In this document: one piece after another, positions 3,383-49,785 of the stretch
How the letters are laid out: the number at the start of each line of letters is the position of its first letter
Numbering within the stretch: the first letter of the stretch is position 1
Translations under genes and position numbers: made by a program
Virus record (IMG/VR): IMGVR_UViG_3300045988_094266
Direction: 5' to 3' (one strand)
Origin: a virus
DNA length: 64,000 nucleotides
The notes under the pieces: generated by a model
The model's input: the letters and a program-made list of their open reading frames with translations, nothing else
Told to the model about the DNA's origin: nothing
Database searches by the model: none

Positions 3383-3658
3383 TTATTCCTCACTTAAATT
3401 ATATCCAATAAGTTCCATACAAGGATTTATTAATCGCAATAATATCTCTACTTCATCAATTACGAATTTTTCCTTCAAATCTCTACTTTTTAGAAATTCA
3501 GAATAACTAATACAATTTAGTCCAATAATTCCATATTGTTCTGCTTTAATTCTCATTGAGCGTGGATTGCTACATACAAAAATAGCATCATTATCTTTAG
3601 CATATTGCATTAGTTGATAGGTTTTTCCAGTACATCTGTTACCAATAATTCTAAACAT
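3383..3658 (-). CDS. Small P-loop (GNRCTGKT) protein
   Basis: 91-aa ORF whose stop abuts the ThyX start. Confidence 0.3.
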   Translation of the reverse strand: MFRIIGNRCTGKTYQLMQYAKDNDAIFVCSNPRSMRIKAEQYGIIGLNCISYSEFLKSRDLKEKFVIDEVEILLRLINPCMELIGYNLSEE

Positions 3659-4569
3659 TAAGATCCTCCGCGAGTAGTATTTAAACCAAAATCTTTCGTT
3701 TTATAAAACTCAATCCAATAAGTTTCTCTCTCATTTAAATTTTCCCTTGAAACTTCTTCTAAAATCTCAAAGGTAAAATTATGAACTCCAGATTTCTACA
3801 TGGTAGAATATAGTTTATTGGTTGCTTTTCCGTAAGTTAAAGCAGATTTAATATGTTGTCTAAAACGTTCTTTTATATCAACTGACTATCCTATATAGGA
3901 TTTCCCAGTGGTCAAATCAGTTATCCTATAAATCCCACAATATTTAATTGCTTTTGGGAATAACCGAGCTGTTAATATATCATAAGCTGGTTTATAATAC
4001 ACTTCCCATATTAACTTATCTATGCTTTCTTTTTTGACAAATCTAGGTTGCAACTCACGCAATAATGTAATATCATTTATATCAATTTCATCAAGAGCTA
4101 AACGATAGTAATCTTGATTAGAGTCAATCTCTTCCTATCTTAGTTGAGCCTAAATATAAGCAAGTTGTTTAGCTTGTAAATCCGCTAATTTACTGGATTC
4201 GATAGAAATTTTATTTGATAAATCTTGACTTTTAGCATCAAAAGTCATAGTAAGCTCATTTTCTTTTTCTTCATAGGATTTTAAAAGTGCGGAAATGCGA
4301 ATCTAGTATGCCTCATCAGCTTGCTTTTGTGCATTTTCCCGCATTTCTTCCTAAGATTTTACTAGAGAAGAAAGAATTTCATTTTCAGAGTATATATTTT
4401 CTTTTATATTAGATAATACTTCTCTATTATGTTTTATTTCCTATTCTATCTCGGAGTTTTTCCTCTAATTATCTATATTAACTTCAATTATTTGATGCTC
4501 TTGTTTCTTGAGATAATAGATATAAATTATTAACCCGATTATAGTAATTAATAATAACCCTATAATCAT
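3659..4569 (-). CDS. GIY-YIG nuclease-domain protein (N-terminal TM helix and coiled coil, C-terminal GIY-YIG) with eight in-frame TAG codons
   Basis: Continuous frame once TAG is read as sense. C-terminus GIYRITDLTTGKSYIG[TAG]SVDIKERFRQH...ETYWIEFYKT is a GIY-YIG motif. TAA stop overlaps the next ATG (TAATG). No standard-code ORF of 60 aa or more exists in this 0.9-kb region. Confidence 0.55.
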
Positions 4570-11345: not shown

Positions 11346-11442
11346 AAATACAAATGCTCCTTTATTTTTATTCTTTTTATTTTCTTAATATATAATATCA
11401 TATATTTTAAGAAAAATCAAACTACAAACAAATAAAGGCTTA

Positions 11443-11475
11443 ATGAGTATTTAACTCATTAAGCCTTTATATTAA
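11443..11475 (-). terminator. Intrinsic terminator hairpin (aaaggcttaatgag / ctcattaagccttt)
   Basis: Inverted repeat after the holin-like gene. Confidence 0.45.
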
Positions 11476-11807
11476 ATAGGACCATCGAGATCAATGGGAA
11501 TATCATTAGAGGCTGAAAAATCTTCTGCGGGGATGTTATATGCAGAATTGAATTCAGTTTCTTTTAAAGCTAGGTCATAAGTAATGCCGCCTTTTTTGTG
11601 ATCTGATTTAGCCATTGCTAAATAAAAAGAACAAACTACTCCGTGGGCGCTCCATGGTAGACCAACAAGAGCACTAATCCATGGAAGGGTTCCTAAATAT
11701 CCCATATAAACACACATAAATGCCAAAAGGATACCTGACACAGTCACGACCCATAATAACATACGAATATCATTTATAAGTTTTTTGGAAAATTCTAATT
11801 TTTTCAT
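11472..11807 (-). CDS. Holin-like membrane protein
   Basis: 111 aa with two TM helices. Sits next to the lysins, and its ATG overlaps the upstream TGA (ATGA). Confidence 0.45.
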   Translation of the reverse strand: MKKLEFSKKLINDIRMLLWVVTVSGILLAFMCVYMGYLGTLPWISALVGLPWSAHGVVCSFYLAMAKSDHKKGGITYDLALKETEFNSAYNIPAEDFSASNDIPIDLDGPI

Positions 11808-13213
11808 TTTAAACCCAGCTTTTCAGCCAATCTTCTTAACATAGTTACAGTTTCTAATCTAGTGCAGAATTTATTTGGCATCATTCTTCCAGCACTGTCT
11901 CCAGCCATAATCCCATTCGCTTTAGCCCATTCAAGATTATCGGTGCCCCAAGTTTCTTTTTCATTAGCTTTATTAGTAAGCCAAGTATTCATAAGTTCAG
12001 CGAATTTCTCGTCAGTCATATCTTCATCATCCTCCTAGATATTTGACATTAAATTATAAACATCTGTTCTTGCGGTTTCCATGCTTTTTCCAAATTTTGG
12101 AAACCAATGGTTTACATCTGCATGATTAGATCCTAATCCTAGCTTGTGACTATCAGCATGACATAAAATAGTCGGAACGGTGATACCATTTAAAGTAGTG
12201 GTTCCCAATGGATTTATGTTATACATTTTACATAAATAAGCAGTAATTTGACAAGCCTCTTCATAAATTTTGTTAAAATAATTTGCATCATTTAATCCAT
12301 CTTCGCAAATTTCAAACTGAATCCATCCATTATTACAAGAACCTTTAGACCCAGAACCGCATCCCCAAGGACGATAATTCCATGGCATTGTCTATACTGT
12401 TGTTACTGTTCCATCAGCCAATTTACCAATCCAACAGTTTAATCCAGCTTGAACAGATATATGATTCCAGTCATTCTTGCTAGTATTTTTTCCTAATTTA
12501 TTTATTAAACTGGTGTAGTTAGGATCATTATCGCTTGGCTATACATATCTTTTTAAATTAGGATTATTTGCACCAGTACTATGCCATAAGATTCCTTTAA
12601 CTTGCATGGTGCGTGTTTGTTTATAGCAAGTGCTATTTGTCATCATACATTGAAGTGGTTTATTGCTATCGCTATATTTCATTTTATTACCTCCTTCAAT
12701 TACATTTGAAATGTTAGCAAATTTATTATAATACTATTGACCATAATTAGCCCTCTTTTGTTGCATAGAAAAACTCTAGTCTGAAGGTCTTTCAAACTAG
12801 AGTAATACCGCGGTAGAGGCTTCTGTGACAGAAGTGGCAGAAATCAAAATTTTAACTAAACTAGAAAAACTTGTAATTAACTCCTAATATAAAAAATCTA
12901 ATTGAGTATTTAAATCTCCAATGGATTTGCCTCGACTTTGACAGAACTAAAGCAAATTTTGTTTTCTACTCCAAAATGTCCATTGAGCCAATCCATATCC
13001 CGCTCCATCTTTTACAAAGTTTTTATACCTTCCATCATCAACTGCGGAGGTATATCCTGCGTCGGTCATTTTTAATTTTTTTTCATAGGTGTTCTATAAG
13101 TTAATAGAATTAAGTCCACTTTCGGCATAAAGATTACCCATTAAACCGGCAATTCCGCAATCACTAAAACCTTTGCCTTTAAAGTATTTCCAAATAATTT
13201 GAGCATTAGTCAT
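11804..13213 (-). CDS. Endolysin: phage-lysozyme-like domain plus Amidase_2 (PGRP-type) domain, with a C-terminal SLH domain reached only by TAG read-through; about 11 in-frame TAG codons
   Basis: One continuous frame when TAG is sense: MTNAQIIWKYFKGKGFSDCGIAGLMGNLYAESG... then ...MKYSDSNKPLQC...GILWHSTGANNP...CHADSHKLGLGSNHADVNHWFP (amidase_2 Zn ligands) ...LMSNI[TAG]RDDED-MTDEKF...EWAKANGIMAGDSAGRMMPNKFCTRLETVTMLRRL (SLH motif), ending in TGA. The SLH part also has its own AGGAGG RBS, so it may be made separately. Confidence 0.5.
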
Positions 13214-13215
13214 TT

Positions 13216-14070
13216 TTATTTTTTTGTAATGAAAGAGCTATATCCAGCAGATTTTAATTTATCTTTTAGTCTTTCTGCATTTAATTTCACAGAGAAAGCA
13301 CCTAATTGAACTTTATAAAAAATTCCTACTTTCTTGACATACCCGCTAAATCCTTTCTCTTCCAATTCCTTTAACATATTCTCTGCATTGGTTTTAGATA
13401 GAAATGCTCCTACTTGAACTCTGTAAAGAACTACCTCTTGTTCTTTCTTAAAATATACACACATTACATTATCAACTGATCTTGCATAAATTTGAGAAGT
13501 TTTTCTTTTCCCATCTATTAGTAATCTAGTAGATCCGCCTCCATCTAAATTAATAGCATATTCTACTTTCAATTCAAGAAAAATTTGCTATAGGGCAGCA
13601 TAAACAAGACCTGGAGAATCTACGGTTACAATATAATAATTATTTTTATTCCATCCAATACAAGTCCTGCGGGCTTTATAATCTAATTCTTTTCCATCTG
13701 TTATAACTACTTTTTTGCTATCTACAATTAATGCAGGATAAGCTGCGATAAAATCTCTAGCGGTTTCATAATCTTTTAATGTTGTATATATAAGTGTTTT
13801 ATTGCCGCTAATTGCAACTCCATGACGAAAATCAGACTAAATAACAGTTCCTTCGTCTTTATAACTAAAGCAGGTGTTGCCATTATTCATGGCAAAGAAA
13901 CCTCCATTAGTAATAATATCTGGTTTAGTAGCCTGTCTTTTATAATAAGCATCTGGAGTTTCCGTCGGTTGATTGCATAAGGCAAAGTCAATTTTTTCAA
14001 TGTCTGTGAAGGGAATTGTTACAATTTGAACATAAGAATAGAGACTATGTTTTTTGATACTATATCCCAT
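13216..14070 (-). CDS. Second cell-wall hydrolase: phosphodiester-glycosidase-like domain plus two SPOR peptidoglycan-binding repeats; two in-frame TAG codons
   Basis: Frame continues through TAGs at ~13837 and ~13588: MGYSIKKHS...NLDGGGSTRLLIDGKRK...YRVQVGAFLSKTNAENMLKELEEKGF...YKVQLGAFSVKLNAERLKDKLKSAGY (SPOR). RBS AAAGGAGAT upstream. Confidence 0.5.
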
Positions 14071-14091: not shown

Positions 14092-14118
14092 AAAACCCAA
14101 TCTCTAAAGAGATTGGGT
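14092..14118 (-). terminator. Intrinsic terminator hairpin (aacccaatctc / gagattgggtt)
   Basis: Inverted repeat after the PhoH-like gene. Confidence 0.45.
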
Positions 14119-14123
14119 TTAAA

Positions 14124-17188: not shown

Positions 17189-17343
17189 TATTTACTTTCC
17201 TTTCTTTCCTCAAGACCCAAACGCTTTCGGGTTCTATAATAGATTTTAATAAAGAATTTTCCAATCTTCCTAAATGTGAAATTTAGCAAGAACCATATTG
17301 CAACAAGAGCAAGTACAACTAAAATCCAGAAAATAGGATTCAT
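17183..17343 (-). CDS. Small membrane protein preceding the SPFH gene (NfeD-like partner?)
   Basis: MNPIFWILVVLALVAIWFLLNFTFRKIGK...; its stop overlaps the SPFH ATG (TAATG). Confidence 0.3.
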
Positions 17344-17903
17344 AGCATCTCGATACACTCCTTTACCTTCAAGTTCATATCTTCAATGACCTTATCCAAA
17401 GATACTGGATAACAGTCATGAGAATCAACTCCTACATGATACATATAAGGTCTATCTTCAAAGAAATTAGTCTGCTGATGCGTATGACCATATAGATTAA
17501 TGATCATCTGCTTGAGACTTTCTTTCTCAAGATTTCCAGTCAAAGTGGGGAAATGAGACATATAGAAGTGATATTTCCTGTACTTAAGAGCAATAGCCCA
17601 AGCAGTTTCTACCACATTAGGAAGCTCGGCGTACATTTTCTTGCGGCTGTCCGTACAGTGGTTTCCAAAAGTAATGTGGAGTTTTCCATTCATGGAGGAA
17701 ATAAACTCCTTATTTCTCTCAAGACTGTCCGCCCCACCGAGGCAAAGGTCCCCAAGAACATATACATCATCTTCTGGAGTGACAATAGAGTTATGCCTCT
17801 CGATAAGAGCAACATTCATCTCTTCAACAGAATTGAATCCACGAGATTTATAGACAAACTCACGGTCATGCGAGAAGTGCCAATCCGAGGTTACGAAAAT
17901 CAT
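17340..17903 (-). CDS. Calcineurin-type metallophosphoesterase (Pnkp-like phosphatase module)
   Basis: 187 aa with GDLCLGG...GNHC...GHTH motifs. Overlaps the kinase gene (ATGA). Confidence 0.6.
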   Translation of the reverse strand: MIFVTSDWHFSHDREFVYKSRGFNSVEEMNVALIERHNSIVTPEDDVYVLGDLCLGGADSLERNKEFISSMNGKLHITFGNHCTDSRKKMYAELPNVVETAWAIALKYRKYHFYMSHFPTLTGNLEKESLKQMIINLYGHTHQQTNFFEDRPYMYHVGVDSHDCYPVSLDKVIEDMNLKVKECIEML

Positions 17904-18433
17904 TTATCTCCCTCCTCCATGTTATGATGATTGATTTTTACATCCTTAAAGCCATACTTGTAGAGTTTAAATTCTGCGGGAGTGGGAGGTCTAAAACCTC
18001 TAGCCATCTTTCTAATCGCGGAATCGGGTACTTTGGAAAATCCCTTTCTCAAGTTATTGCGGGCTATACAAGTATCAATCCCGCAATCACAAACTTCAAA
18101 ACTAAGTCCAGTCTTCCCGTCCGGCCGCAGCCTTCCTAACAACTTGGCTCTTGATCCTTGAGAGATATGAGTAGCATCAACAAAGATGTAGTCAATCCCA
18201 ATTTCAAGGCACTCGTTAATTTGTCGAACGAACTCTTCAAATACTTCATTTTCTCGCGAGAAATAATCCTTATCTCCAATGAAACTTTCTCTTATCACAT
18301 CGCGAGAAATAATAGCAGTATGAAAGCCATCCATTTCAAGAAGTTCGGCTTCTTTATTAGCCCAAGTTGACTTCCCACTACCAGGGATACCAACCATGAC
18401 TTTTACTTCAATAGTCATACTGCTTTCCTCCAT
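17900..18433 (-). CDS. P-loop polynucleotide kinase (Pnkp-like kinase module)
   Basis: 177 aa with Walker A VGIPGSGKSTWA. Together with the downstream phosphoesterase it resembles the kinase and phosphatase parts of bacterial Pnkp. Confidence 0.5.
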   Translation of the reverse strand: MEESSMTIEVKVMVGIPGSGKSTWANKEAELLEMDGFHTAIISRDVIRESFIGDKDYFSRENEVFEEFVRQINECLEIGIDYIFVDATHISQGSRAKLLGRLRPDGKTGLSFEVCDCGIDTCIARNNLRKGFSKVPDSAIRKMARGFRPPTPAEFKLYKYGFKDVKINHHNMEEGDK

Positions 18434-18496: not shown

Positions 18497-19363
18497 TCAA
18501 AATTCGACTGGTTGAATGAGGTCTTCGATATAAAGTCTATCTTCTTCCTTAAAAATAGGAATATTGAGATCGACGAACCAATAATGTTTAAAATGGATTG
18601 AACCATCCTCTCTTTCGGTCTCTTCGCAGTCTTTTATGCAACAAGAACCTCTTTGTAAATAGACGGGCAATTCATTCCAATCTATTCCTTTTTGAGAAAT
18701 AAGCATTTCTAAAATTTCACTACTACATTTACCTTGAAGTTCACTATGAGAAAAATTCGCTTGTCCAACCATTTGAATAGAATTTCTAATAGCATCTAAT
18801 TGGCGCCAATAAATTAGATTTGTTACTTCTTCTTTCGGAATATTGAAAACACGAGCATCAAACATAGCCCCTCTTGCGTTTGCTATCCGTAAAGTTCTCA
18901 TATATTCTTGATGCTCAAGTTGAATTTCTACGCCCTGAGGAGTTAAAGAATTTTTCCAACCAATATCATATCTTTCAATAGCTGAACGAAACACCTTATT
19001 AAAAATCATTGTTGCCATGGACGCTGCTACAGAACACATTTTTTGAACTTCATAATCAAACCATGCGTCGCTATTTAATTTTTTATAGTCAACAAGAATT
19101 AGAGTTATTTCATCGCTTTGAGTATATCCAAGAACACATCCTTGGATATTTTTACATAAATATTTCATTGTTTCTTGCATAGCCGAAGTCAATACCGCAT
19201 CAAATGGTTTTCTAAAACCTTTAGTAAAGGTATGAAATGCTTTTCCATCAATTCTAATTGCTACAGGTGTTCTACGCACAAGTCGAGTTTTTGGAATTTG
19301 CTCATAGAACTCTTTCATGCGAGCGCCTAGCTGGTCATTCATATTATTCATCCTCCTTATCAA
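18497..19363 (-). CDS. Thg1-like protein (tRNA-His guanylyltransferase family, 3'-5' nucleotidyltransferase)
   Basis: 288 aa. N-terminal VAIRIDGKAFHTFTKGF matches the Thg1 signature (RLDGRNFHRF). Confidence 0.6.
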   Translation of the reverse strand: MIRRMNNMNDQLGARMKEFYEQIPKTRLVRRTPVAIRIDGKAFHTFTKGFRKPFDAVLTSAMQETMKYLCKNIQGCVLGYTQSDEITLILVDYKKLNSDAWFDYEVQKMCSVAASMATMIFNKVFRSAIERYDIGWKNSLTPQGVEIQLEHQEYMRTLRIANARGAMFDARVFNIPKEEVTNLIYWRQLDAIRNSIQMVGQANFSHSELQGKCSSEILEMLISQKGIDWNELPVYLQRGSCCIKDCEETEREDGSIHFKHYWFVDLNIPIFKEEDRLYIEDLIQPVEF

Positions 19364-20075
19364 CAGTAAAGATGTGTTCGTCGAAAGTATCCAAATTTAG
19401 AAGAACAGTTTTTCCAGACATATAACTGCAACAGTCAATATCAACTTTATGATTATCACAATACCATAAAGCTCCACCATTATATGAGTAAGAGAATTGT
19501 CTATCTGGCGGTAGAAAATTATTCGCATTATCTAATCTTAGAATTAAGTATTCTGAAATTGGAGTATGGCCATGAACGCAAATTCCTTCACCTTCGGTAG
19601 TATCATAGATATGCTCTCTATCCCATAGCAAATCCTCGTTTGCTGGGAATGGTTCTTTTGCAGGAGTAAAACCCGCATGACAAAGCATAATGGTTATTCC
19701 ATTTTTATTCTTATATTCAAGATATAGGGGCAATTTTCTTAGATAGTGATACCATCCAGACTTAGCTCCATCATTAATCCATCCATTAAAAGTAGAAGCT
19801 CCTCCATTCCAACAGAGAAGATCAAAATGACCTCCTCCATATGTTTCATATTTAATATAATCTTTCATAGCTTTAACAAGCATATCTTCGTGATTACCTT
19901 TAATATAGATAAAACGCGGATCCGACGCGACCGCTTTAATAGTTTCCCAAGACCGCGGACCTCGATCGCCGCAATCTCCTAGACAATAAACTTTATCTTC
20001 TGGCTTTAGAAAGTCACTAATTTTTTGATATAGCTCATACATACCATGAAGATCGCTAACTGCGTATATGCTCAT
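19344..20075 (-). CDS. Metallophosphoesterase (PPP/ApaH-like)
   Basis: 243 aa with DLHG...GDCGDRG...GNHE motifs. Confidence 0.6.
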   Translation of the reverse strand: MSIYAVSDLHGMYELYQKISDFLKPEDKVYCLGDCGDRGPRSWETIKAVASDPRFIYIKGNHEDMLVKAMKDYIKYETYGGGHFDLLCWNGGASTFNGWINDGAKSGWYHYLRKLPLYLEYKNKNGITIMLCHAGFTPAKEPFPANEDLLWDREHIYDTTEGEGICVHGHTPISEYLILRLDNANNFLPPDRQFSYSYNGGALWYCDNHKVDIDCCSYMSGKTVLLNLDTFDEHIFTVDKEDE

Positions 20076-20129
20076 AAATAAAACTCCCTTTCTTATATTA
20101 TATAAATATTATATCATAAATATTATAAA

Positions 20130-20156
20130 AAATAAAGAGAGCTGTAAAGCTCTCTT
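20130..20156 (-). terminator. Intrinsic terminator hairpin (aagagagct-gtaa-agctctctt)
   Basis: Inverted repeat right after the NadE stop. Confidence 0.45.
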
Positions 20157-40083: not shown

Positions 40084-41246
40084 TTATTCACTAACAGTAG
40101 CATCTCCGCCATTTAAGATAAGCTCTGTACCAGGAGTCTAAGTAATTTTTTCTATATTTATATTATTGACAATCATAGTTCCATCGCCTGTAATAGCAAC
40201 ACCATTTTCACCATTAGTGCTTTTTACTACACCGAGGGCTTCTGCTGTAGCAATAGGAATAGTAACTGCGCCATCGCTAACCTAAAGAGGAGTAGTTCCT
40301 ACGGTTATACTCTTAATCTTCTCTGCTAAAGCCGCGGGAAGACCAGTAATTTTCTCCTATGCAATCGCTTTTACGCCAAGAGTTTTATCATCAGGATCAA
40401 TTTCTAATTCATCACTGACTCCTTTGATTTCTGCTAAACCCTATAATTTAGCAATTAGAGTGTCTTGAACTAAAGATGATCCTTCTACTTTGTCGACTTT
40501 ATTAGCTAACTTAGTATCTACACTACTTGTAGTTTCGTATCCACTTAAATCTACAAATCCCGCAAGAACATCCCATTTGTAAGTTCCAGCATCATCAGTG
40601 TCAATACATACTACATTAGTTCCAGCTGGATATTTATTATCAGCTCCTTCAACGAAGTCTTCAGTAGTGGTGAAAGCATCTATAATATTATATACTTTTC
40701 CCTCTTGATCAGCTCCAAGTGTAGGAAGGAAACTAAACATAATGGAACCAGCAGGTTTATAAGTTGAACTTATTGCAGTAGCAATTTTTTGGTCAATCTT
40801 AGAATCTGCTTCTGTTTTATTATAATAATCATTAAATTTTCCATTAATAGTGCTTCATAAGCTGCTTTAACTTCCTCAATGGCTGCCCAAAGATTAGAAG
40901 CTGTTATTGAACTTTCTTCTTCTTTGGTACCAACAGAGGTTTCTAATGCGGAAACTTTTCCTTGAAGCTCTAAAACATCTTCCGTTAAATCACCAGAAGC
41001 AGTAGTTGAAGCCAATTTCATTAAATTGCCAGCAGCATTTTGAATCATATACGCTTCAACTGTATTTTCTTCTTCATTAACTAAGGTAACTACCTAACCA
41101 ACATATGCTACAGGACTAGATTGAGCATATGTTGTTAATTCTTCCATATTATACCATACTGAATATTCATCAATAGGGAAAGGATTTCCTCTACGAATAC
41201 TCAGAGGTAACGCCATATATGCAATATCTTTGTTAATTACTGCCAT
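40084..41246 (-). CDS. Tail-fibre-like paralog with several in-frame TAGs and an apparent -1 frameshift or indel at an A-AAU-UUA heptamer (~40840-40850)
   Basis: MAVINKDIAYMALPLSIRRGNPFPI...AAIEEVKAAYEALLMEN then shifts -1 into FNDYYNKTEADSKIDQKIATAISSTYKPAGSIMFSFLPTLG...KIT[TAG]TPGTELILNGGDATVSE, ending in TAA. Homology to the 38721..40058 gene supports both halves. Confidence 0.4.
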
Positions 41247-41263
41247 TATTTGTTCCTCCTTCC

Positions 41264-42325
41264 TTACTTTCCAATTACAACCTTATGATCCTCAGTTGGA
41301 TCAATGGAAGCAGGTTGATAAACGAATACATCATAAGGAACCGCGGTAAATCCATTTGCTCCTTCTACTTGCACTGGTCCTTGCTTTACATAGCTAGAAG
41401 TTACATCTGCGTTCAAACTAGAAGTAATATTAGCTGCGGTAACTTTAAGCCCAGAAGATTGAGGAACTGCGATAATAATTCTCTTAGTATCACTTTTTGC
41501 TTTAATGCTATTAATAGTCATTGCGGCTGCCGCTTTATTGCTTGCTGTTAAAGAACGAATAATCGCGCTAGTTAAAGGATCTGTAGAATTATTAACTCCA
41601 TAAAAAATCTAGCGATATCCAGTAATAGCTCCTGTGCTATTAGACTTAGATCCAGCTTTAATCTGTCCTTCTGCATATTCAGAACCAAGATTTGTAACAG
41701 GAATAGCTCCATTCCCATAATTAGCTGTTGCTGTAATCTTTAAATTAGTAGCATCTTCAACTTGAATTTCAGAGAAAGTTCCAGTAGCTTCTGTTTTTGT
41801 TTCTTCATCAAATTGGACGCTCCAACCGGTTGCTGTAATTCCAGTGTCTGGGCCGTATTGATAAGATCCTTTATTTAAAGTTGCAGTATAAGTTGGAGTT
41901 ACATTAGTGCCTGCTTCATACGCTTTCATTTGACTAGAGGAAATACTAACAGAAGGTTGCGTAATAGTAGGATTTTTTTCTTCCGCAAAAGCATCTAGCA
42001 GTAATTGATCTAATGTTTTTCCAGTCGCGGGAATATTAACAGATCCATCTCCTCCAGGAGCATATTTACCAAAAGTATAGGTAAATGTAAAATCATCATC
42101 AAATTTTACAATAGATGAATCAACTTCTACAATATCTTTTCCACCAGAATATTCTAACTAACCCCAAGTGCTTGTTCCATCACCATATTTTACTTTTCCT
42201 TTATTCTCGCCATCAGTGGTAAGACAAGCCTCTCCAACGAGAGGAATAAAGGAGTCCTTAACTGAAGTCCAATTTTCCTCGGTATCATGTCTAAGTTGGA
42301 TTCTAGTTTTTAATTCATTGGCCAT
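41264..42325 (-). CDS. Tail-fibre-like paralog with two in-frame TAGs (joins 41609..41929 and 41264..41521)
   Basis: MANELKTRIQLRHDTEENWTSVKDSFIPLVGE...GDGTSTWG[TAG]LEYSGGKD...AITGYR[TAG]IFYGVNNSTDPL...HKVVIGK, ending in TAA; RBS AAGGAGG. Confidence 0.5.
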
Positions 42326-42345
42326 CTTTAAAATGCCTCCTTATT

Positions 42346-42906
42346 TTAGTCTACTGCTGTCCCACAGTTTAATATTAAAGTAAAACCTTCAACATCCACT
42401 ATTTTATCAAGTCCTACAGAATTAATTTCTCCGGTTCCATCTGAAAGTATTTTTATCTAGTTATTCTAACTACTCCCCTTAATTAAACCAAGATTTTCTT
42501 CTGTTCCCGCCGGAATAGTAACTTTATTATCTTCAACCGGCAAATCTTTATTTCCGATAGAGATAGTTTCTATTACTTTATCCTAAGATATTGGAGTATA
42601 CCACTCTAATGTGCCATCTTCTCTTTTTCTAATAGATTGCCCTGTTGATGCTTCTGTAAATCCTTTTAATGAAATCTGTCCAATTCCATCAATAACAATA
42701 GATTGATTGTCTACATCAACATTTACCAAACTACTATTTATATATTTTAACTATTTCCACTCGGTGGATCCATCTCCAATTTTTAACTTTCCAGTATCTA
42801 TTTCAAATCCCGGCTCACCTTGACGAAGAATTGGATTTAATTCGGTCCACTTCTCTGATGTTCCTCGCTTGAACTAAAATATTGTTTTATAAACAACTTC
42901 AGCCAA
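42346..42906 (-). CDS. Tail-fibre-like paralog with about five in-frame TAGs (TTG start after AGGAGGG)
   Basis: (M)AEVVYKTIF[TAG]FKRGTSEKWTELNPILRQGEPGFEIDTGKLKIGDGSTEWK[TAG]LKYI...; carries the conserved N-terminal fibre motif; TAA stop. Confidence 0.4.
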
Positions 42907-42920
42907 AGTCACTCCCTCCT

Positions 42921-43178
42921 TTAGCCAATTAGTCCGCCATCATAAATAATAGTTGTATCTTCTGGAGGAAGAGGCTAATCTCCGCCTCCACCAGAGGGCT
43001 ACAACACCCATTCATGATCAGAATTGAGAATATATTTATTTCCATTTTCAATTACATATGCCGAACTGCCTGGCTTTCGGTTTGTAGGGAGATTAGCAAC
43101 ATCACTTTGGTAATCACATAAAAAATGAATCGCGCCATATATAATTTTATTGGCTGTATTTTTACCAACAGTAATCAT
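42921..43178 (-). CDS. Small structural-module protein with two in-frame TAGs
   Basis: MITVGKNTANKIIYGAIHFLCDYQSDVANLPTNRKPGSSAYVIENGNKYILNSDHEWVL[TAG]PSGGGGD[TAG]PLPPEDTTIIYDGGLIG; RBS AAGGAGAA. Confidence 0.35.
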
Positions 43179-43276
43179 ACTTATTCTCCTTTCTTAAAGA
43201 AGTAGAGAAAATTATCTCTCTTTATACTATATAACAATATTGACAAGAGATTTCACATAAATTGTCCAAACCCCAT

Positions 43277-43335
43277 TTTTGAAAGAAAAATTTGGTGAGC
43301 CTGCGCGAACGGAAACTCGGAGCAGAACGAGGACA
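43277..43335. repeat. Conserved ~55-nt element, copy 2
   Basis: Same sequence as 16196..16250 (TTTTGAAAGAAAAATTTGGTGAGCCTGCGCGAACGGAAACTCGGAGCAGAACGAGG). Confidence 0.6.
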
Positions 43336-43339
43336 ACAG

Positions 43340-43372
43340 AAAAGAGGGGCTAGCTTATGGCTAGCCCCTCTA
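43340..43372 (-). terminator. Intrinsic terminator (gaggggctagc-ttatg-gctagcccctc, T-run on the minus strand)
   Basis: 11-bp perfect inverted repeat downstream of tRNA-Met and the AAA ATPase gene. Confidence 0.5.
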
Positions 43373-43455
43373 GGGTAATCAAGGTTTTGCAGAACCTCAA
43401 TCATACATATTGCATTTATAAATGAAATATATATAAACACCGCTGCAACGATGGA

Positions 43456-43531
43456 TGGTTGCGGGTATGAGAATCGAACTCATTCCTCAAGCCTTATGAG
43501 GGCTGCGACTTAACCACTTGTCCTACTCGCA
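43456..43531 (-). tRNA. tRNA with anticodon CAT (Met, or Ile-lysidine)
   Basis: Acceptor tgcgagt/acccgca, anticodon loop CTCATAA, T-arm atgag-ttcgatt-ctcat, CCA encoded. Confidence 0.55.
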
Positions 43532-43570
43532 ATATATAAAGCAGTTTTAAGACTTGCTTAGGTCTTTATA

Positions 43571-44696
43571 TTAAAGGTCAATATACTTATTGACTCCATA
43601 AATTGAAACCTTAGTAAAGGTTGCATTTTCAACCCTTACTTTTTCGTTAAATTCCTTTCTAGCCTTTGCACTCTCTTCCTCAGTGGGGTAATCATAATCG
43701 AAAGCATCAAAATCACAATAGAAATTAGCATCTACGCCCATAAGTACGAGAGTACCATCCATAGATTTAATCTTTCCTGGATCAAAAGAAAGGTAGAAAT
43801 CATTCTTATCTTTTTTAAACCGAAGACACTGAACCTCTTTGGCATAAAGATCGAGATTATAATTATATGCAGTCATAACCCAACCATTAGTCAAACGAAC
43901 ATTAACATCAAAGAGAACACCTCTCTCATAGTTAATATTCAAGTCCATTAAGGTTTCCTCCAAAGGATAACCCTGTTTCAAATCAAAAGCAATAGCCCTT
44001 AGGCTATCATAAGTGATGTCTGCGACCTGCGATAACTTAACAACCTTTTCAATTTCCTCTTCCTTGCCGCTTCCAAGCGCATCCATCATATATGCCCGTA
44101 CTTCATCTGCGGTAGGACAGCCAATCTCAAAATGATAGTGAAAACGACCAGGGCGATTGATAAGAAATTCGTTCAATTTTCTTGTATCGTTACAAGTGAT
44201 AACAAAAAGTTTCTTTCCATTATCAATCCCATCAAATAGACTTAAAAGTCCTACCTGCGGATCGCCGTCATCATTCCTGGCAAAAGTCTTTTCAAACTCG
44301 TCAAAGATAATAACAACTTCTTGTTCAATGGAACTGAGGAAATTACTAATTCCGGGGATAGGAGAATCGACTACAATCACTGGCATTTCTCGCTTGATCG
44401 CGGCATCCGCAATCATTCTTGCAAAAAGAGATTTGCCAATACCTTTCTTACCAGAAAGAATTATACCAAAGTTTCGCTCGGACTTATCGAAAGAGTTGAA
44501 AACTTTCTCTACTTTATGACTATGCGAGCCATAAACTTTTTCTTCGCCAATCTGCAAATTATTATGAACAGAAAGCCAAATTCCCATTTGGGGATGGAAA
44601 CCGATTGTATAGGTTCCGATTGGTAACTCTTTATAAGTTTTTACATCGTCACCATATACCTAAAAACGATTTCCTGTATGGACAATATTCATCTAT
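43571..44696 (-). CDS. AAA+ ATPase with one in-frame TAG near the N-terminus
   Basis: MNIVHTGNRF[TAG]VYGDDVKTY...MGIWLSVHNN...ILSGKKGIGKSLFARMIADAA (Walker A); RBS GGAAAGGAAG. Confidence 0.5.
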
Positions 44697-44721
44697 TTAC
44701 TTCCTTTCCTATTGTTAGATG

Positions 44722-44809
44722 TGGTGGGCCAGGAGGGAATCGCACCCACTCGAGCTCGAAAGCACCGGTTTTACAGACCGGGGTGTCTACTTTATCACTT
44801 TACTGACCC
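44722..44809 (-). tRNA. tRNA-Tyr (GTA), class II
   Basis: Anticodon stem ccggt/accgg with loop CTGTAAA; long variable arm; CCA encoded. Confidence 0.65.
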
Positions 44810-44827
44810 ATATATAAAAGAATTGTT

Positions 44828-44914
44828 TGGTCCCGGAGACGGGACTCGAACCCGTACGAGATTGCTCTCAGGGGATTTTAAGTCCCCTGTGTCTGCCAAT
44901 TCCACCACTCCGGG
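44828..44914 (-). tRNA. tRNA-Leu (TAA), class II
   Basis: Acceptor cccggag/ctccggg, anticodon loop CTTAAAA, long variable arm, T-arm gggttcgagtccc. Confidence 0.65.
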
Positions 44915-44999
44915 ATATTGCACATTTTTATGCTGAGTTGTGCTTCTCACCTTTCTCTTCTTCTTCCCCGGCGGATGAAAGTATCTCCGGTGTATTCGG

Positions 45000-45116
45000 C
45001 GGGGAGTGCAGGACTCGAACCTGCGACATCGTGCACCCAAAGCAAGTTAAAGATTGCTGTTACGGTCTTTAACAAGACCAAACTATAACGCGCTCTACCA
45101 ACTGAGCTAACTCCCC
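45000..45116 (-). ncRNA. tRNA-like gene (intact acceptor, D-arm and T-arm) with a ~40-nt insertion in the anticodon region; intron-containing tRNA or Y-RNA/vault-RNA-like molecule
   Basis: ggggagt-ta-gctcagttggtagagc-g ... [66 nt including the hairpin ggtcttgttaaagacc] ... gcagg-ttcgagt-cctgc-actcccc-g. No canonical anticodon arm can be drawn. Confidence 0.45.
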
Positions 45117-45363
45117 ATATAAACGATTTTGGATAAGGTTAATCGAGAACCTCGTCAGTGTGCTACTACGCCAAAGGCGAGCCCTGCAGGTTTACTCGCC
45201 ACTCTTTAAATGGTGGACGCTTTCAATCCTACATCCTGACAATAGAAGTCTTATTTACGATTTCTGTACGTATTGCTTCTATTACTGGCACCGCTTCTTC
45301 GTGTTGAACGAAAACTTCTTGGTTCAGAGCCAAGCGTGCAGACCGCTACACTAAAGCGGTATA

Positions 45364-45437
45364 TGGCAGCGGATAGAGGGGTCGAACCTCTAACAAGGGA
45401 GTCAAAGTCCCGCGTGTTACCATTACACCAATCCGCT
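45364..45437 (-). tRNA. tRNA-Gln (TTG)
   Basis: Anticodon loop CTTTGAC, G73, D-loop TAATGGTA (same family as the suppressor tRNA), CCA encoded. Confidence 0.6.
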
Positions 45438-45509
45438 ATAAATCAAGACGCATTAAAGAAAAGACTGTTTATCAGACAGTTGCGTAAACCATTCCGCCAA
45501 AATCGCTAA

Positions 45510-45545
45510 GCGCGATCCACAGGATTCGAACCTGCATCTTCTATT
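45510..45545 (-). other. 3' tRNA fragment (T-arm gcagg-ttcgaat-cctgt plus a 3' acceptor strand, no 5' half)
   Basis: The T-loop signature has no complementary acceptor or D-arm upstream. Next to the repeated ATTTGCTGTATGCGTCTT motif. Confidence 0.35.
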
Positions 45546-45797
45546 AAGAAGAATTTGCTGTATGCGTCTTTATTTTACTTATATTTTAATTACACTCGCT
45601 GCTATATCGCAGTTGAACAAATCGTCATAAATCTTCTCTAAAGAAGCATCTTCATCAATGGTATATCCATTCAAAAGAGAATGTTTCTTTAGAGCTTCTT
45701 TTTCTGATTCAGCAGTAATCTTCTCTAACTTAATTTCATTTTCAAAGAAACTAAGAACTCCAACAACAAAATTCATAATTTTCTCCTAGACTTTAAG

Positions 45798-45873
45798 TGG
45801 TACCCGGTGACGGGCTCGAACCGCCGACCTCCGCGGTGTAAACGCGATGCTCTCCCAGCTGAGCTAACCGGGC
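45798..45873 (-). tRNA. tRNA-Val (TAC)
   Basis: D gctcagctgggagagc, anticodon loop TTTACAC, T-arm ggcgg-ttcgagc-ccgtc, CCA encoded. Confidence 0.7.
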
Positions 45874-46339
45874 ATTTAACTCAGAAAGATATTTTTAAAT
45901 TCGTTCTCAAGCATAAAGAAAACTTCGCTCGCGCAACCACCTTTGCCGACTTGAACATAAGCAATCATAACATCTCCAGAGTCAGCATCGAAACCACGAC
46001 AAATAGTCTTAACAAGACCATAAGGATTAGCTCGATAAAAGCAACCCATAGCAACAAAGTTATTCTTCATATTTAAGACTTCCTTTCTCAACTTTCTATA
46101 AATATTATATCATTTATTTTTAATATTTTCAAAAGTTTCTAAAGACTAGACTCAAAAGGGCTTGCCACATATGCTCAACATTTTCTTGGCTTCCCTTCAA
46201 AAAGAAAATGCTTCTTAGCTTTCTAAATAAGATTTATTTAGTAAAATCTTTTTATACAAGTATATTTGCATATATTTGCTGTATTGAGTCTATATATATA
46301 GGAAAGGAGTGATACATATTCTCGCTCCCTAAGAGGGAG

Positions 46340-46416
46340 TGGTCCGAGTGGTGAGACTCAAACTCACGGCCTCGTGATCCCAAATCACGCGTTCTAATCA
46401 ACTGAACTACACCCGG
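46340..46416 (-). tRNA. tRNA-Pro (TGG)
   Basis: Anticodon stem cgtga/tcacg with loop TTTGGGA; T-arm gtgag-tttgagt-ctcac; CCA encoded. Confidence 0.65.
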
Positions 46417-46693
46417 ATATTAACTTAGGGTTTTTCGCACTTCCGCAGATTTCCATGCCTGGTCCTTATCGTTTCCTCTAGTGCTATACGAGGCACCGAC
46501 CCTAAACCCTTCTGCTCTATGCCGGTTGTGTACTGATACCGGAAAACATCTTGGGGACTTTATTTTTTTTACCTTCGTTGCTCCAATCCTCGAAGGGTAT
46601 CTCGAAGTATAGCTCTTCTATTTTACTGGCTCGGATTTAAGGCCCTACGATTTATTCTTACTGCCTTTCAGACTTGTACGTAAGATACCAATA

Positions 46694-46781
46694 TGGCGCA
46701 GAGAGTAGGATTTGAACCCACGGATCTTTCGACCTCCTGCTTTCTAGGCAGGCGCCATAAACCAGACTCGGCCATCTCTGC
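46694..46781 (-). tRNA. Class-II tRNA (Ser-like) with anticodon parsed as AGA
   Basis: Anticodon stem cctgc/gcagg with loop CTAGAAA; long variable arm ggtcgaaagatc; CCA encoded. A34 is unusual. Confidence 0.5.
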
Positions 46782-46784
46782 ATA

Positions 46785-46861
46785 TGGTACGCCAGAGAAG
46801 ATTTGAACTCCCACAAGCCAGGGTCCGTAGCCCTGTGCACTCTCCGTTATGCTACTGGCGC
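46785..46861 (-). tRNA. tRNA-Arg (ACG)
   Basis: Anticodon stem caggg/ccctg with loop CTACGGA; CCA encoded; starts 3 nt after the preceding tRNA. Confidence 0.65.
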
Positions 46862-46935
46862 ATATACTAGACCCACCATCTTTTTCTCCAGTTCAAACAA
46901 CAGGTAAAGAGTTCTTTGCAGTACGGGTCTAAATT

Positions 46936-47388
46936 TTAATTACGAGTACGTAACCAATAATTTTTCATCTTGTAATTTGAATCATCCGTCACTTCAATAG
47001 CATCATCAATAGGAAACTGATAGTTGCGGGCCTGCTCCTCTGATTCAAATTCAATTTCTGCATAGATAAAAGCTCCATCATCTACCACAGAAACCGTGAG
47101 CGGATACCCGCCGCAATTAAAAACGGAATAATTTTTCTTAATTGGAGGTTTACCGACAAAATCTTTTAGCTGATTGTAAAAATCTTCCGAAATTTCTGTT
47201 TCAATTTCTTCTCTTGTTAAAGAGCCTTCACCTTTTACGGTAATTCTAAAAGGCTCTTTACTTGCCGGGTTATGTCGTAATCGCACTTCTGGATTCGTCG
47301 AAACATAAAATTGCTCTACCTGAGAATTTTTTACTAATCGAAATTCGGTAGGAACTCTTTGAAGAATCCACTTTCTTTCAATTTCCAT
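46936..47388 (-). CDS. CYTH-domain protein (triphosphate tunnel metalloenzyme family)
   Basis: 150 aa. The N-terminal MEIERKWIL motif is typical of CYTH/CyaB-like proteins; sits inside the tRNA cluster. Confidence 0.45.
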   Translation of the reverse strand: MEIERKWILQRVPTEFRLVKNSQVEQFYVSTNPEVRLRHNPASKEPFRITVKGEGSLTREEIETEISEDFYNQLKDFVGKPPIKKNYSVFNCGGYPLTVSVVDDGAFIYAEIEFESEEQARNYQFPIDDAIEVTDDSNYKMKNYWLRTRN

Positions 47389-47672
47389 ACGAATCCTCCA
47401 TCAAATAATCTGCATCTTCATAAAGAGTGTCTTTTATAATAACACACTCATACTTATTATCTCTCTCCGCAGAAGCATCAAGAATGATTAAAGGCTCTCC
47501 TCCTACAGTAGTTTTGGAAAAAACTCTCGCAGCGATGTTCATCGCCTCTCAAGGAGAATTTGCTACTAAAAGAACATTCCGCTTAAACACTTTACTTTTT
47601 ATTGTCTTTAATTTAACTGAGACATTAAAAAAGTATTCCATAATAAATCCTTTCCTACTTTTATTATTAACT

Positions 47673-47997
47673 GGTGGAGCCGGCGGGAGTCGAACCCGCG
47701 TCCGAAACACCTATATAATTAAAGTCTTTTCACACGATAGTTAAACTTTATCCATTAAGTGGGATAGGCTTTAACAAACCACACTCCATTAAGCGTACTG
47801 GTTTACCTCCACCACTTTGTTTAAGAGAGTAAACAAAGAAACTCAAGGGTTAAGCGGCGAGCTTAGCTCAAGCCGCAAGATAATTCTCGAAATAATCGTT
47901 GTCAGTTAATTTTTGTTGCCCCTTAAGGCGGTGTGCATACCCGTGAACTTTAATCCTTCAATGCCCCGTCGAAACCTTTACGGCCCCATGTAACCCC
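47673..47997 (-). ncRNA. ssrA: tmRNA (SsrA), tag peptide ...DNDYFENYLAA
   Basis: 5' GGGGCCGTAAAGGTTTCGACGGGG, tag ORF gacaacgattatttcgagaattatcttgcggcttga, 3' tRNA-like end GGACGCGGGTTCGACTCCCGCCGGCTCCACCA with a G3:U70 pair. Confidence 0.75.
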
Positions 47998-48059
47998 TCT
48001 TGTTAATTATATAAGCAAAAGGGGTATATAACACTTCAAGAAATTTTGTCCTTGCGGAC

Positions 48060-48134
48060 TGGTGGGCCACCGAGGACTCGAACCTCGTCCCGTAGGGCTT
48101 CAACCTACTGCTCTGCCTGTTAAGCTAATGGCCC
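48060..48134 (-). tRNA. tRNA-Phe (GAA)
   Basis: Anticodon stem gtagg/cctac with loop TTGAAGC; T-arm cgagg-ttcgagt-cctcg; CCA encoded. Confidence 0.7.
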
Positions 48135-48215
48135 ATAGGCTCTCTATGTGAGGCGATGCTCAACCCACAACCAAGACGCGCGCTCTTGTGTTTTCCACTT
48201 TTAAACTAATAGAGA

Positions 48216-48292
48216 TGGTACCCCGTATTGGACTTGAACCAATGACCTACCGCTTAGAAGGCGGTTGCTCTTTCCAGCTGAGCTAACGGGGC
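48216..48292 (-). tRNA. tRNA-Arg (TCT)
   Basis: Anticodon stem accgc/gcggt with loop CTTCTAA; CCA encoded. Confidence 0.7.
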
Positions 48293-48304
48293 AAATAAGG
48301 AGCA

Positions 48305-48538
48305 TTAAGCTACTCCAGCTTTTCTTGCTACTCTTGCAAGAATTTTATAGTCTGTACTATCTTCTGCAACCAATTTACATGGCTTTCCAATTAGAGCAAA
48401 TAAACCAAGCAGACTACGAGCATCAACCATAACCATACCGTCATTAGAATGAACCCAAAGTACATCTGGAGTTTTACTCGCTACGGCATTTAGACGCTCA
48501 ACATCACTTGTGCTTTTGATATTAATATCCATTACCAT
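48305..48538 (-). CDS. Small hypothetical protein
   Basis: 77-aa ORF between tRNAs. Confidence 0.25.
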   Translation of the reverse strand: MVMDINIKSTSDVERLNAVASKTPDVLWVHSNDGMVMVDARSLLGLFALIGKPCKLVAEDSTDYKILARVARKAGVA

Positions 48539-48553
48539 TTTATCGACCTCCTT

Positions 48554-48805
48554 TTATATTCTCCATGTACGAAACTCTTTGAACTGCTCTTCCAGATCTT
48601 GTTGATAGTTATAAACTTCGAGAACCCGTTGCATATTTAAGCTATTAGTCCTATCAATAAGACTAATCGCTTCATTTCTATCAACTGCATAAATAGGGTA
48701 ATCTTCAAAGGAAAATTCATCAACTGCAATAATGCAGTATTGATTGATACCATTATCACCACGGATTACCATATCACGAACTTCTACATAACTTGCTATA
48801 GACAT
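48554..48805 (-). CDS. Small hypothetical protein
   Basis: 83-aa ORF; RBS present. Confidence 0.25.
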   Translation of the reverse strand: MSIASYVEVRDMVIRGDNGINQYCIIAVDEFSFEDYPIYAVDRNEAISLIDRTNSLNMQRVLEVYNYQQDLEEQFKEFRTWRI

Positions 48806-48823
48806 GGCACTCTCTCCTTTTAT

Positions 48824-48898
48824 TGGCAGGGCGAGTAGGATTCGAACCTACAGTCATGGTTTTGGAGACCATTGGTTTAGCCATTAACCGATCGCCCT
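48824..48898 (-). tRNA. tRNA-Trp (CCA)
   Basis: Anticodon stem atggt/accat with loop CTCCAAA, G73. The anticodon is CCA, not UCA, so TGA is not decoded as Trp. Confidence 0.7.
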
Positions 48899-49137
48899 AT
48901 GTAAGCTGAGCGTCCCCAGCCCTAATCGAGTTACTTTGGAGCTGCTTCCACTGACGGGCGAACTCGATAAACAAAAGCCTTTTGTTCTACACTCTAGTCA
49001 AAGCAGCATGACACCCTAGTGTAGCATGGCCTCTGTGGTCTTTGTCCCACAAAGAATTTTTCGAACCGAACTCTTTGCACATGACAGAATTTTGCGTTAG
49101 GTATTCACCCTGCCATCTGTCAAGGCTGTCATTCGGT

Positions 49138-49214
49138 TGGTGCTCCGAGGCAGATTCGAACTGCCGACCTCGCGATTATCAGTCACGTATTCTAACCAAC
49201 TGAACTACCGAAGC
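49138..49214 (-). tRNA. tRNA-Ile (GAT)
   Basis: Anticodon loop CTGATAA; T-arm ggcag-ttcgaat-ctgcc. Confidence 0.65.
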
Positions 49215-49440
49215 ATATAATAGGTTCGTTTCGGCGTCACCCGCATTGAGGAGAACCATTTCCCCAGTCTGAGGCCTTAGGGCATACCTCGACGACAGCC
49301 CAGCATTATGTCCGCCAACAGAAAGTTTTTTGACACCCAGTTTATCACTTTCAACTTTTCCGCCGAAGAATGGCGTGGCTTTCCTTTATACGCCTCCGAG
49401 GAGGAGCTTCCCGCAGTCTATTCGCCCCGGCTACGAGGGG

Positions 49441-49516
49441 TGGAGCAAGATACCGGATTCGAACCGGCCCTTTCTGCTTGGAAGGCAGACGTGCTAGCCG
49501 CTAACACTAATCCTGC
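49441..49516 (-). tRNA. tRNA-Gly (TCC)
   Basis: Anticodon stem tctgc/gcaga with loop CTTCCAA; CCA encoded. Confidence 0.65.
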
Positions 49517-49785
49517 ATATGGTAGTTTCCCTGTTTTTTAGAGGTACTACCTAACCCAAGTCGACTTTGTCGTTTGTTCACAGATAACCCGCTCAAACAA
49601 AACAAACCAAAATGCGGAGATGAACGAAATTGTTTTCTTCTTCTTGAATCAGAGAATCGTCATCAAGTTGTCCCTAAGTCATGCAGTCTTCGTAACGCCA
49701 GACTACCAGAAACGCTACTCGGTTTAACCTTGACTGAAAATTCTCGTGCACAGAATAACAGTTGTGTCTCACTCAAGAGTAGAAA

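Follow-up and report, generated by a model that had tools for sequence, protein, structure and literature searches.

The DNA analysed here is a window of 64,000 nt, the whole stretch under study, from the IMG/VR record IMGVR_UViG_3300045988_094266, and its subject is a minus-strand lysis cassette extending from 14070 to 11472. A gene for a protein with a NAGPA and a SPOR domain (13216..14070) comes first, followed by an endolysin gene (11804..13213) and by a small gene for a hydrophobic, holin-like protein (11472..11807); every gene of the region that holds the finding (11804-14070) is on the minus strand. Contigs of ~148 kb carry near-identical relatives, one of them with the lysin translation P0002, and the window covers 64 kb; the GC content of the phage is low, at about 36%. 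Genes were called by codon-usage scoring, which gave 85 genes in the window, a few of them doubtful, and were annotated with PHROG. For comparison we fetched 79 related IMG/VR loci, from which 54 distinct lysins were aligned, and used a set of 50,697 GenBank phage records. A blastn search with the cassette returns no match in those 50,697 records, where relatives are found at the protein level only.

A single-frame endolysin with TAG read as glutamine

The endolysin open reading frame (ORF) encodes 469 residues, with nine in-frame TAG codons read as glutamine and a TGA stop. Pfam searches identify a Phage_lysozyme2 domain (residues 3-165, 12719..13207, 4e-35), with six TAGs in or just after it, an Amidase_2 domain (residues 202-353, 12155..12610, 1.7e-11), with two TAGs at residues 225 and 274, and a single S-layer homology (SLH) motif (residues 422-454, 11852..11950) inside a C-terminal module at 11807-12019. 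The 71-residue tail by itself scores 23.7 bits against the SLH family (PF00395), above the cut-off of 20.8; when the whole fusion is scanned the score is 19.8 bits. In addition, the tail matches the first SLH motif of B. anthracis Sap (Sap SLH1, 3PYW) with an E-value of 6.5e-4 and has the sequence hallmarks of the family, namely W429, GIMAG starting at G434 (of the GIIxG type) and TRLE starting at T451 (of the TRAE type); W429, G438, R452 and E454 are invariant in alignment A1. The lysin has one such motif only, rather than the unit of three tandem SLH motifs of S-layer proteins. PHROG places the protein in endolysin families (phrog_20388, endolysin, 3e-65). An AlphaFold model built from alignment A1 has a mean pLDDT of 78, and a Foldseek search with it returns AmiA/AmiE, PlyL, PlyG and XlyA (E down to 5e-6), with the fold of the lysozyme domain matching the phi29 gp13 lysozyme (3CSQ/3CSR). 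With the full-length model Foldseek matched the catalytic domains only, the SLH module being too small to appear; it is modelled as helix, loop, helix. The only low-confidence stretches outside the domains (pLDDT <50) are residues 168-176 and 392-398, which are the two interdomain linkers. The endolysin is thus one 469-residue polypeptide that combines Phage_lysozyme2, Amidase_2 and a single SLH motif. The first-pass annotation, made from the same DNA, was right that the frame 13213..11804 stays open through TAG and carries Amidase_2 and SLH domains, both detected by Pfam, and overestimated its TAG codons at about 11. Two translations of 469 residues and 99% identity (P0001 and P0002) are already present in the protein collection, together with thousands of lysin relatives, many of them annotated PF18013+PF01510+PF00395.

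Are the TAG codons really sense codons? Among the 85 called genes, 65 end in TAA, 20 in TGA and none in TAG, and 54 in-frame TAGs are spread over 21 of the 85 ORFs, with a few doubtful calls among them; the lysin accounts for nine, which fall within Pfam domains. These nine are at 13094-13096, 12947-12949, 12884-12886, 12797-12799, 12776-12778, 12734-12736, 12539-12541, 12392-12394 and 12035-12037. When aligned with the relatives, position 225 is Gln in 52 of 54 and position 274 in 49 of 54, while positions 40, 139 and 146 are Gln in 28-39 of the 54; positions 89, 160 and 393 fall in variable alignment columns. For the companion NAGPA and SPOR protein, the TAG at position 161 corresponds to Gln in 85 of 120 listed homologues. 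A suppressor tRNA gene with anticodon CUA was found by ARAGORN at 37196-37270 (minus strand), with a U1-U72 mismatch and G73. Judged from the alignments, the gene ends and this tRNA, the source, a gut phage of roughly 150 kb, decodes TAG as glutamine (genetic code 15), in line with the earlier claim of a sense codon. The nine lysin TAGs would be Gln codons read by the phage's own tRNA(CUA), and the peptide NLMSNIQEDDEDMTDEK of the lysin spans a TAG position at which Gln is expected. Recoding of TAG to Gln has been validated by metaproteomics in crAss-like phages (PMC9523058). Under a standard-code annotation the lysin breaks into about eight fragments, and its wall anchor looks like a separate small gene.

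The TAG closest to the C-terminus (12035..12037, minus strand, residue 393) is the first residue of the acidic linker qEDDEDM (q denoting TAG) and overlaps a Shine-Dalgarno (SD) sequence, AGGAGG, at 12036-12031. It follows residues LMSNI and is succeeded by GAG GAT GAT GAA GAT and then by an ATG (12019-12017) that opens the 71-residue, TAG-free tail. Under translation table 11, the ORF 12388..12035 ends at this TAG with the SLH tail following in frame. The first-pass annotation had described the same arrangement, a TAG with an in-frame 71-residue SLH tail six codons further on, and both its coordinates and its frame hold. It had also credited this one TAG with joining the SLH domain to the lysin; here the relatives tell a different story. 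No in-frame TAG is present in the lysins of 25 of the 54 relatives, most of which keep the lysozyme, the amidase and an SLH-type tail as one uninterrupted ORF; these TAG-free, single-ORF lysins include those of L019, L022, L036, L047 and L056-L076, at 51-63% identity. In the loci of the TAG-free lysins, TAG terminates 20 of 155 ORFs, which indicates that those loci use the standard code, and the three-domain single ORF of such standard-code relatives implies in turn that the fusion predates recoding. The SLH module does belong to the lysin product, as had been claimed, and no TAG was needed to put it there.

The history of the codon itself can be read from the same alignment. Position 393 is Gln (IQEDDEDM) in relatives of at least 87% identity and Glu in relatives at 78-80%, and a TAG is found there in three of the 54 aligned relatives, all of the closest lineage. 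Moreover, Dulem virus 33, which has a standard-code amidase-SLH endolysin, reads TIQEDDDM, with CAG (Gln) at exactly the position of this TAG. By this comparison, the linker TAG is a GAG-to-TAG point change in a disordered acidic linker (EEDDEDM) and an ordinary sense codon.

The core of the lysin is combined with other modules elsewhere. In the relatives L023, L029, L039-L046, L053, L055 and L077-L079 the lysozyme-amidase core is kept and the C-terminus swapped for longer, non-SLH modules, and some of these proteins add an N-terminal peptidase-like domain and reach 615-877 residues. The number of TAGs per lysin ranges from 0 to 16 among the relatives, with 16 in L077. In GenBank, the endolysin of Faecalibacterium phage FP_Lagaffe (NC_047911) has a Phage_lysozyme2 part that is 51% identical over residues 3-211; SPOR is at the C-terminus of that endolysin, whereas here the endolysin ends in SLH and SPOR belongs to the separate NAGPA protein. 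Stand-alone endolysins of Oscillospiraceae and Evtepia phages in GenBank share 36-45% identity with the amidase-SLH part.

Candidate internal translation starts

Both interdomain linkers are followed directly by a methionine (Met178 after residues 168-176, Met399 after residues 392-398), and in both cases an SD sequence precedes the ATG. The first candidate internal start (12680..12694, minus strand) consists of GGAGG at 12694-12690, a 7-nt spacer and an ATG at 12682-12680, which encodes Met178 at the amidase N-terminus. Its product would be an amidase-SLH protein of 292 residues with three TAGs. The combination of GGAGG and start codon is present in 54 of 54 relatives, with the Met invariant even though the linker residues vary widely (EGGNK, KEEATG, TGGSN, KGGGS, EKGDGGT and others), and one relative keeps the start codon as GTG. 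The second candidate (12017..12036, minus strand) has AGGAGG at 12036-12031 (AGGAGGA with the A at 12030) and an ATG at 12019-12017 (Met399), 11 nt after the GGAGG core, and its product would be the free SLH module of 71 residues, with no TAG. GGAGGA is found 8 or 11 nt before an ATG or GTG in all 42 SLH-type relatives, which have 22 distinct linkers between them, and the SD-forming Glu pair GAGGAG, or at least GGAGGA, is present in 42/42; for comparison, GAG makes up 37% of the Glu codons elsewhere in the genes. The ribosome-binding site that the first-pass annotation had noted before the SLH tail is therefore both present and conserved. Relatives with non-SLH C-terminal modules lack the second start and keep the first, and the second motif also occurs inside the stand-alone amidase-SLH endolysin L082. 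Measured by anti-SD duplex energy, the first start of the present gene reaches -13.5 kcal/mol (rank 1 of 23) and the second, with AGGAGGA and its 11-nt spacer, -10.7 (rank 2); in all 54 sequences both starts rank 1-4 among 17-46 in-frame NTG codons, with the second at rank 1-3.

The conserved ribosome-binding site appears better explained by internal translation starts than by a TAG switch. In addition to the full-length enzyme, the gene most likely yields an amidase-SLH protein from Met178 and a free SLH module from Met399, as in phi2638A, Lys170 and CTP1L. Internal starts have been predicted in about 50% of the endolysins of phages of Gram-positive bacteria, and some of them validated (PMC9430671). 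In phi2638A the internal start lies between lytic domains (PMC12203907), and in Lys170, LysIME-EF1, CTP1L and CD27L it gives rise to a free wall-binding domain (PMC4777826, PMC7098653). The lysin studied here resembles these endolysins in having an SD sequence and an in-frame start in an interdomain linker, at a position conserved across the cluster and ahead of a wall-binding or second lytic domain. It differs in having two nested candidate sites, known here from sequence, an SLH wall-binding domain, and 9, 3 and 0 recoded stops in its successive products.

As to what the nested products would do, the closest model is LysBT1 from a Brevibacillus thermoruber prophage, which comprises Amidase_2, a flexible linker and one C-terminal SLH, through which it trimerises (PMC12285257). 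By the features described for it, the two proteins share Amidase_2, the linker and a single SLH with a conserved Trp, GIIxG and TRAE. The present lysin differs in having an additional N-terminal Phage_lysozyme2 domain, in coming from a recoded gut phage and not from a prophage of a thermophile, and in the conserved SD and ATG before its SLH, for which no counterpart appears in the sections on LysBT1 that were consulted. A single SLH motif would have to trimerise, as in LysBT1, and since LysBT1 trimerises through its SLH, the free SLH product could join the full-length enzyme to complete a trimer. Suppression would be needed nine times for the full-length product, three times for amidase-SLH and not at all for SLH alone, so that the active enzymes would accumulate only with abundant suppressor tRNA, as in the published gating model. 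If both internal starts are used, the phenomenon would extend to a three-domain SLH endolysin, and the gene would supply a single-SLH wall-binding module for gut hosts of the Clostridia type, with possible use in endolysin engineering.

Distribution of TAG codons and alternative explanations

The share of TAG among glutamine codons, calculated as TAG/(TAG+CAA+CAG), differs strongly between gene classes. It is 33% in the lysis genes (11 TAG, 22 other Gln codons), 33% in the tail-fibre-like genes at 38721-43178 (17 TAG, 35 others) and 41% in the GIY-YIG and HNH homing endonucleases (12 TAG, 17 others), compared to 3.4% in all other called genes (14 TAG, 394 others). The enrichment of the three classes is far beyond chance, with Fisher p from 2e-7 to 5e-10. 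The first-pass annotation had singled out lysis and structural genes as the densest in TAG, which is correct for the lysis and tail-fibre genes and overlooked the homing endonucleases. Its estimate of two to five TAGs per tail-fibre gene fits most of them, the actual counts being 3, 4, 1, 2, 5 and 2, and its claim that early genes lack TAG is nearly true: those for Topoisomerase II, ligase, PhoH, RNase H, Sak4 and NAD salvage have none, whereas one or two TAGs occur in each of ThyX, RNA ligase, a GatB/YqeY-like gene, an ATPase and one further gene. The gene with the highest density in the window is a GIY-YIG gene (3658-4569, minus strand, 303 residues), with eight TAGs or 2.6 per 100 residues, and the HNH homing-endonuclease gene (35184-36095, minus strand) has four.

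Some care is needed with TAG counts. Two plus-strand ORFs with several TAGs, at 17298-17927 and 25111-26799, were considered and rejected as antisense shadows of minus-strand genes, which encode a metallophosphoesterase, an RNA ligase and an exonuclease; length-based gene calling under code 15 wrongly picks such shadow ORFs, with false TAG counts. As separate observations on the two endonucleases, the GIY-YIG nuclease domain covers only residues 209-302 of the 3658-4569 product, the remainder being a hydrophobic N-terminus followed by a long region resembling a coiled coil, a layout unusual for a homing endonuclease. The last TAG of the HNH gene is its final sense codon, directly before TAA. 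This TAG-TAA tandem is the sole one in the window and the only site there at which TAG could still act as a stop.

A skew of TAG towards lysis and structural genes has been described by Borges et al., who proposed that a suppressor tRNA gates late genes (bioRxiv 10.1101/2021.08.26.457843), and the skew seen here matches such gating, which is plausible for this phage. The phage has several traits in common with the crAss-like, Lak, Agate and Sapphire clades of Borges et al., namely TAG in lysis and structural genes, replication genes in the standard code, a tRNA(CUA) of its own, low GC content and close standard-code relatives. Unlike in those clades, the cassette sits inside a nucleotide-metabolism and replication block, two homing-endonuclease genes are rich in TAG, and neither a release factor nor an aminoacyl-tRNA synthetase is seen in this 64-kb window. 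We regard the cassette as a clean new example of known phenomena that leaves current concepts unchanged. Being bounded by terminator-like hairpins, placed among standard-code early genes and comparable with close standard-code relatives, it also offers a small system in which to test whether stop-codon recoding acts as a timer.

Taken together, we assign a probability of about 70% to the reading that this is a code-15 lysis cassette with a single-ORF lysin, an ancestral domain fusion and probable nested products; the internal starts, the SLH trimer and the gating are what we infer from sequence. Several observations weigh against this reading or parts of it. The suppressor tRNA is 71% identical to phage tRNA-Trp vs. 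67% to tRNA-Gln. A spacer of 11 nt, as at the second start, is rather long for an SD sequence, an acidic linker rich in GAG and GAT yields GGAGGA-like strings more easily than average sequence, and the 42/42 conservation does not amount to 42 independent events, since the relatives share phylogeny (with 22 distinct linkers). The homing endonucleases are as rich in TAG as the lysis genes, which pure late-gene gating does not predict. The lysin occupies the same place in the genomes of standard-code relatives, and the cassette can therefore work without TAG gating. Finally, the holin-like gene is free of TAG; it is also free of any Gln codon and so uninformative.

The alternative that is hardest to dismiss concerns the TAG skew, which could have no regulatory role at all if CAG-to-TAG and GAG-to-TAG changes piled up in fast-evolving or recently transferred genes once the suppressor tRNA had been gained. 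The top TAG share of 41% belongs to homing endonucleases, which are mobile and not late by function, the lysin TAG number varies from 0 to 16 among relatives whose lysin modules are themselves shuffled, and standard-code relatives manage without TAG. Nevertheless, several TAGs lie at strongly conserved Gln residues of conserved domains, beyond variable regions, and independent recoded clades converge on lysis and structural genes for their TAGs (bioRxiv 10.1101/2021.08.26.457843), so that we consider this explanation possible and on balance doubtful. Somewhat less probable again, and in our view unlikely, is that the SD and ATG in both linkers are inert relics of the fusion of lysozyme, amidase and SLH genes and that only the full-length protein is made. 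Such a history is plausible, given that stand-alone amidase-SLH endolysins start close to the Met178 position; acidic and Gly-rich linkers favour GGAGG-like strings, and false positives do occur, as shown by portal genes, the negative control of Pinto et al., 15% of which had predicted internal starts. What speaks for function is that motif and Met are retained in relatives with as little as 51% amino-acid identity, in spite of changes in the sequence and length of the linker around them, that the SD-forming synonymous choices are fixed, that one relative retains the start as GTG, and that the motif before the SLH is kept in a stand-alone amidase-SLH gene, where there is no lysozyme fusion boundary.

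Three further proposals are less probable still. A more elaborate version of the nested-product reading has three products whose ratio is set by the level of the suppressor tRNA; the free SLH module, with no TAG, could be made at any time, a ribosome terminating at the UAG (12037-12035) would be positioned on the SD itself and might start again at Met399, and the NAGPA and SPOR protein might sever the phosphodiester bond between peptidoglycan and the secondary wall polymer, the ligand of SLH. We rate this combination as quite improbable. Lower still is the likelihood of the switch proposed by the first-pass annotation, in which the TAG at 12035-12037 is a leaky stop, with termination giving a lysozyme-amidase without anchor and read-through adding the SLH. 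The table-11 ORF 12388..12035 does end at this codon with the SLH tail in frame, and competition by release factor 1 at any TAG could leave some terminated product. However, this ORF has eight TAGs ahead of the one in question, and at five of the eight positions the relatives most often have Gln, so termination at residue 393 cannot be a dedicated switch: reaching it already takes efficient suppression, and with eight suppressions behind the ribosome an anchor-less lysin would be at most a minor by-product. The fusion exists in standard-code relatives without any TAG, and the TAG is confined to the closest lineage (3/54 relatives) while the SD and ATG are universal. The least credible option is that of three separate genes, with TAG 12734-12736 and TAG 12035-12037 as the true stops of the lysozyme and amidase genes, each followed by its own SD and ATG as in an operon. 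These two TAGs do lie 18 and 6 codons upstream of a strong SD and ATG, yet the same codon would have to be read as Gln seven more times within these two domains, and relatives have sense codons at both positions. About 0.7 TAGs are expected by chance in both windows upstream of the internal starts, so their placement is not significant, and we rejected the idea that the linker TAGs are specially placed there.

The NAGPA and SPOR gene and the surroundings of the cassette

The first gene of the cassette (13216..14070, minus strand) encodes 284 residues, with a NAGPA domain at 52-206 and a SPOR domain at 216-282. It has two TAGs (13837-13839 and 13588-13590), a TAA stop and AAAGGAG 5 nt upstream of its ATG. 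Pfam matches to the 14070..13216 product are good for both NAGPA (PF09992, 2.6e-19, 70.5 bits) and SPOR (PF05036, 1e-15, 58.2 bits), in agreement with the phosphodiester-glycosidase-like and SPOR domains assigned in the first-pass annotation. The SPOR part matches CwlC (1X60, 2.9e-12), the matches of the NAGPA part to 6PKU are weak, and the PHROG family of the protein is one of unknown function. The motifs NGG.F and NLDGGGST are conserved in the 120 listed NAGPA and SPOR homologues. The architecture had been called uncommon, which is true of deposited phages, with no NAGPA match in the 50,697 GenBank phage records, and is not true of metagenomic proteins, where the family has 459 matches, nearly all of the 120 listed carrying both domains. 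Within the related loci the gene is found only in the three closest, L001, L002 and L072, which points to a recent insertion, and an unrelated phage contig, L086, has such a gene flanked by XkdX and an Amidase_2 gene, where lysis genes are typically placed. On this pattern of occurrence, the gene is a lineage-specific insertion from a recurrent family. The protein is probably an accessory wall hydrolase, whose SPOR domain would target glycan strands stripped by the amidase.

The lysin ATG lies 2 nt after the stop of the NAGPA and SPOR gene (13211-13218) and is preceded by an A-rich sequence with no SD, whereas a strong SD precedes the lysin start in every relative without the insertion. Lacking an SD of its own and only 2 nt from the upstream stop, the full-length lysin may depend on translational coupling.

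The putative holin downstream (11472..11807, minus strand, 111 residues) has an ATG that overlaps the lysin stop (ATGA), two hydrophobic stretches identified by eye at about residues 17-37 and 41-66, and a charged tail; a PHROG search with it gives no match. Of the 45 relatives that give a neighbour match, 44 have the holin-like gene immediately after the lysin, and the order PhoH, lysin, holin-like gene and RNase H recurs across the 45. Terminator-like hairpins flank the cassette on the minus strand, one with a 12-bp stem and a T-run at 14093..14120, between PhoH and the cassette, and the other with a 17-bp stem and a T-run at 11432..11470, directly after the holin-like gene. A scan for sigma-70 promoters gave 32 sites vs. 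28.8 ± 5.5 in shuffled sequence, and thus no excess. Another terminator-like hairpin is located inside the lysin at 12773-12803 (minus strand), ~90 nt upstream of the first internal start, with a 13-bp stem followed by TTTTTCT. Its arms are two TAG-containing segments, CTCTAG...CTAGAG, that encode LLqFERPSDq (q again denoting TAG), and CAG or CAA at these TAG codons would abolish the same stem.

The suppressor tRNA gene belongs to an array of 31 tRNA genes and a tmRNA, with small ORFs in between, that spans 36164-54558 on the minus strand and includes tRNA-Sup(CUA), tRNA-Ile(UAU) and two tRNA-Gln genes; the tmRNA is at 47672-47987 and has the tag DNDYFENYLAA. As for the wider surroundings of the cassette, a cluster for RNA repair, tRNA and NAD metabolism in the standard code is located at 18497-26232 (minus strand), with genes for a tRNA-His guanylyltransferase, a NinI-like phosphatase, NAD synthetase, nicotinamide phosphoribosyltransferase and PRPP synthetase, and it also holds the GatB/YqeY-like protein (two TAGs) and the RNA ligase (one TAG). 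The largest unannotated gene of the window is an ORF of 813 residues (30771-33212, minus strand), which has a good coding score, no TAG and no PHROG match, and a gene for a Ro-like RNA-binding protein is present at 33624-35147.

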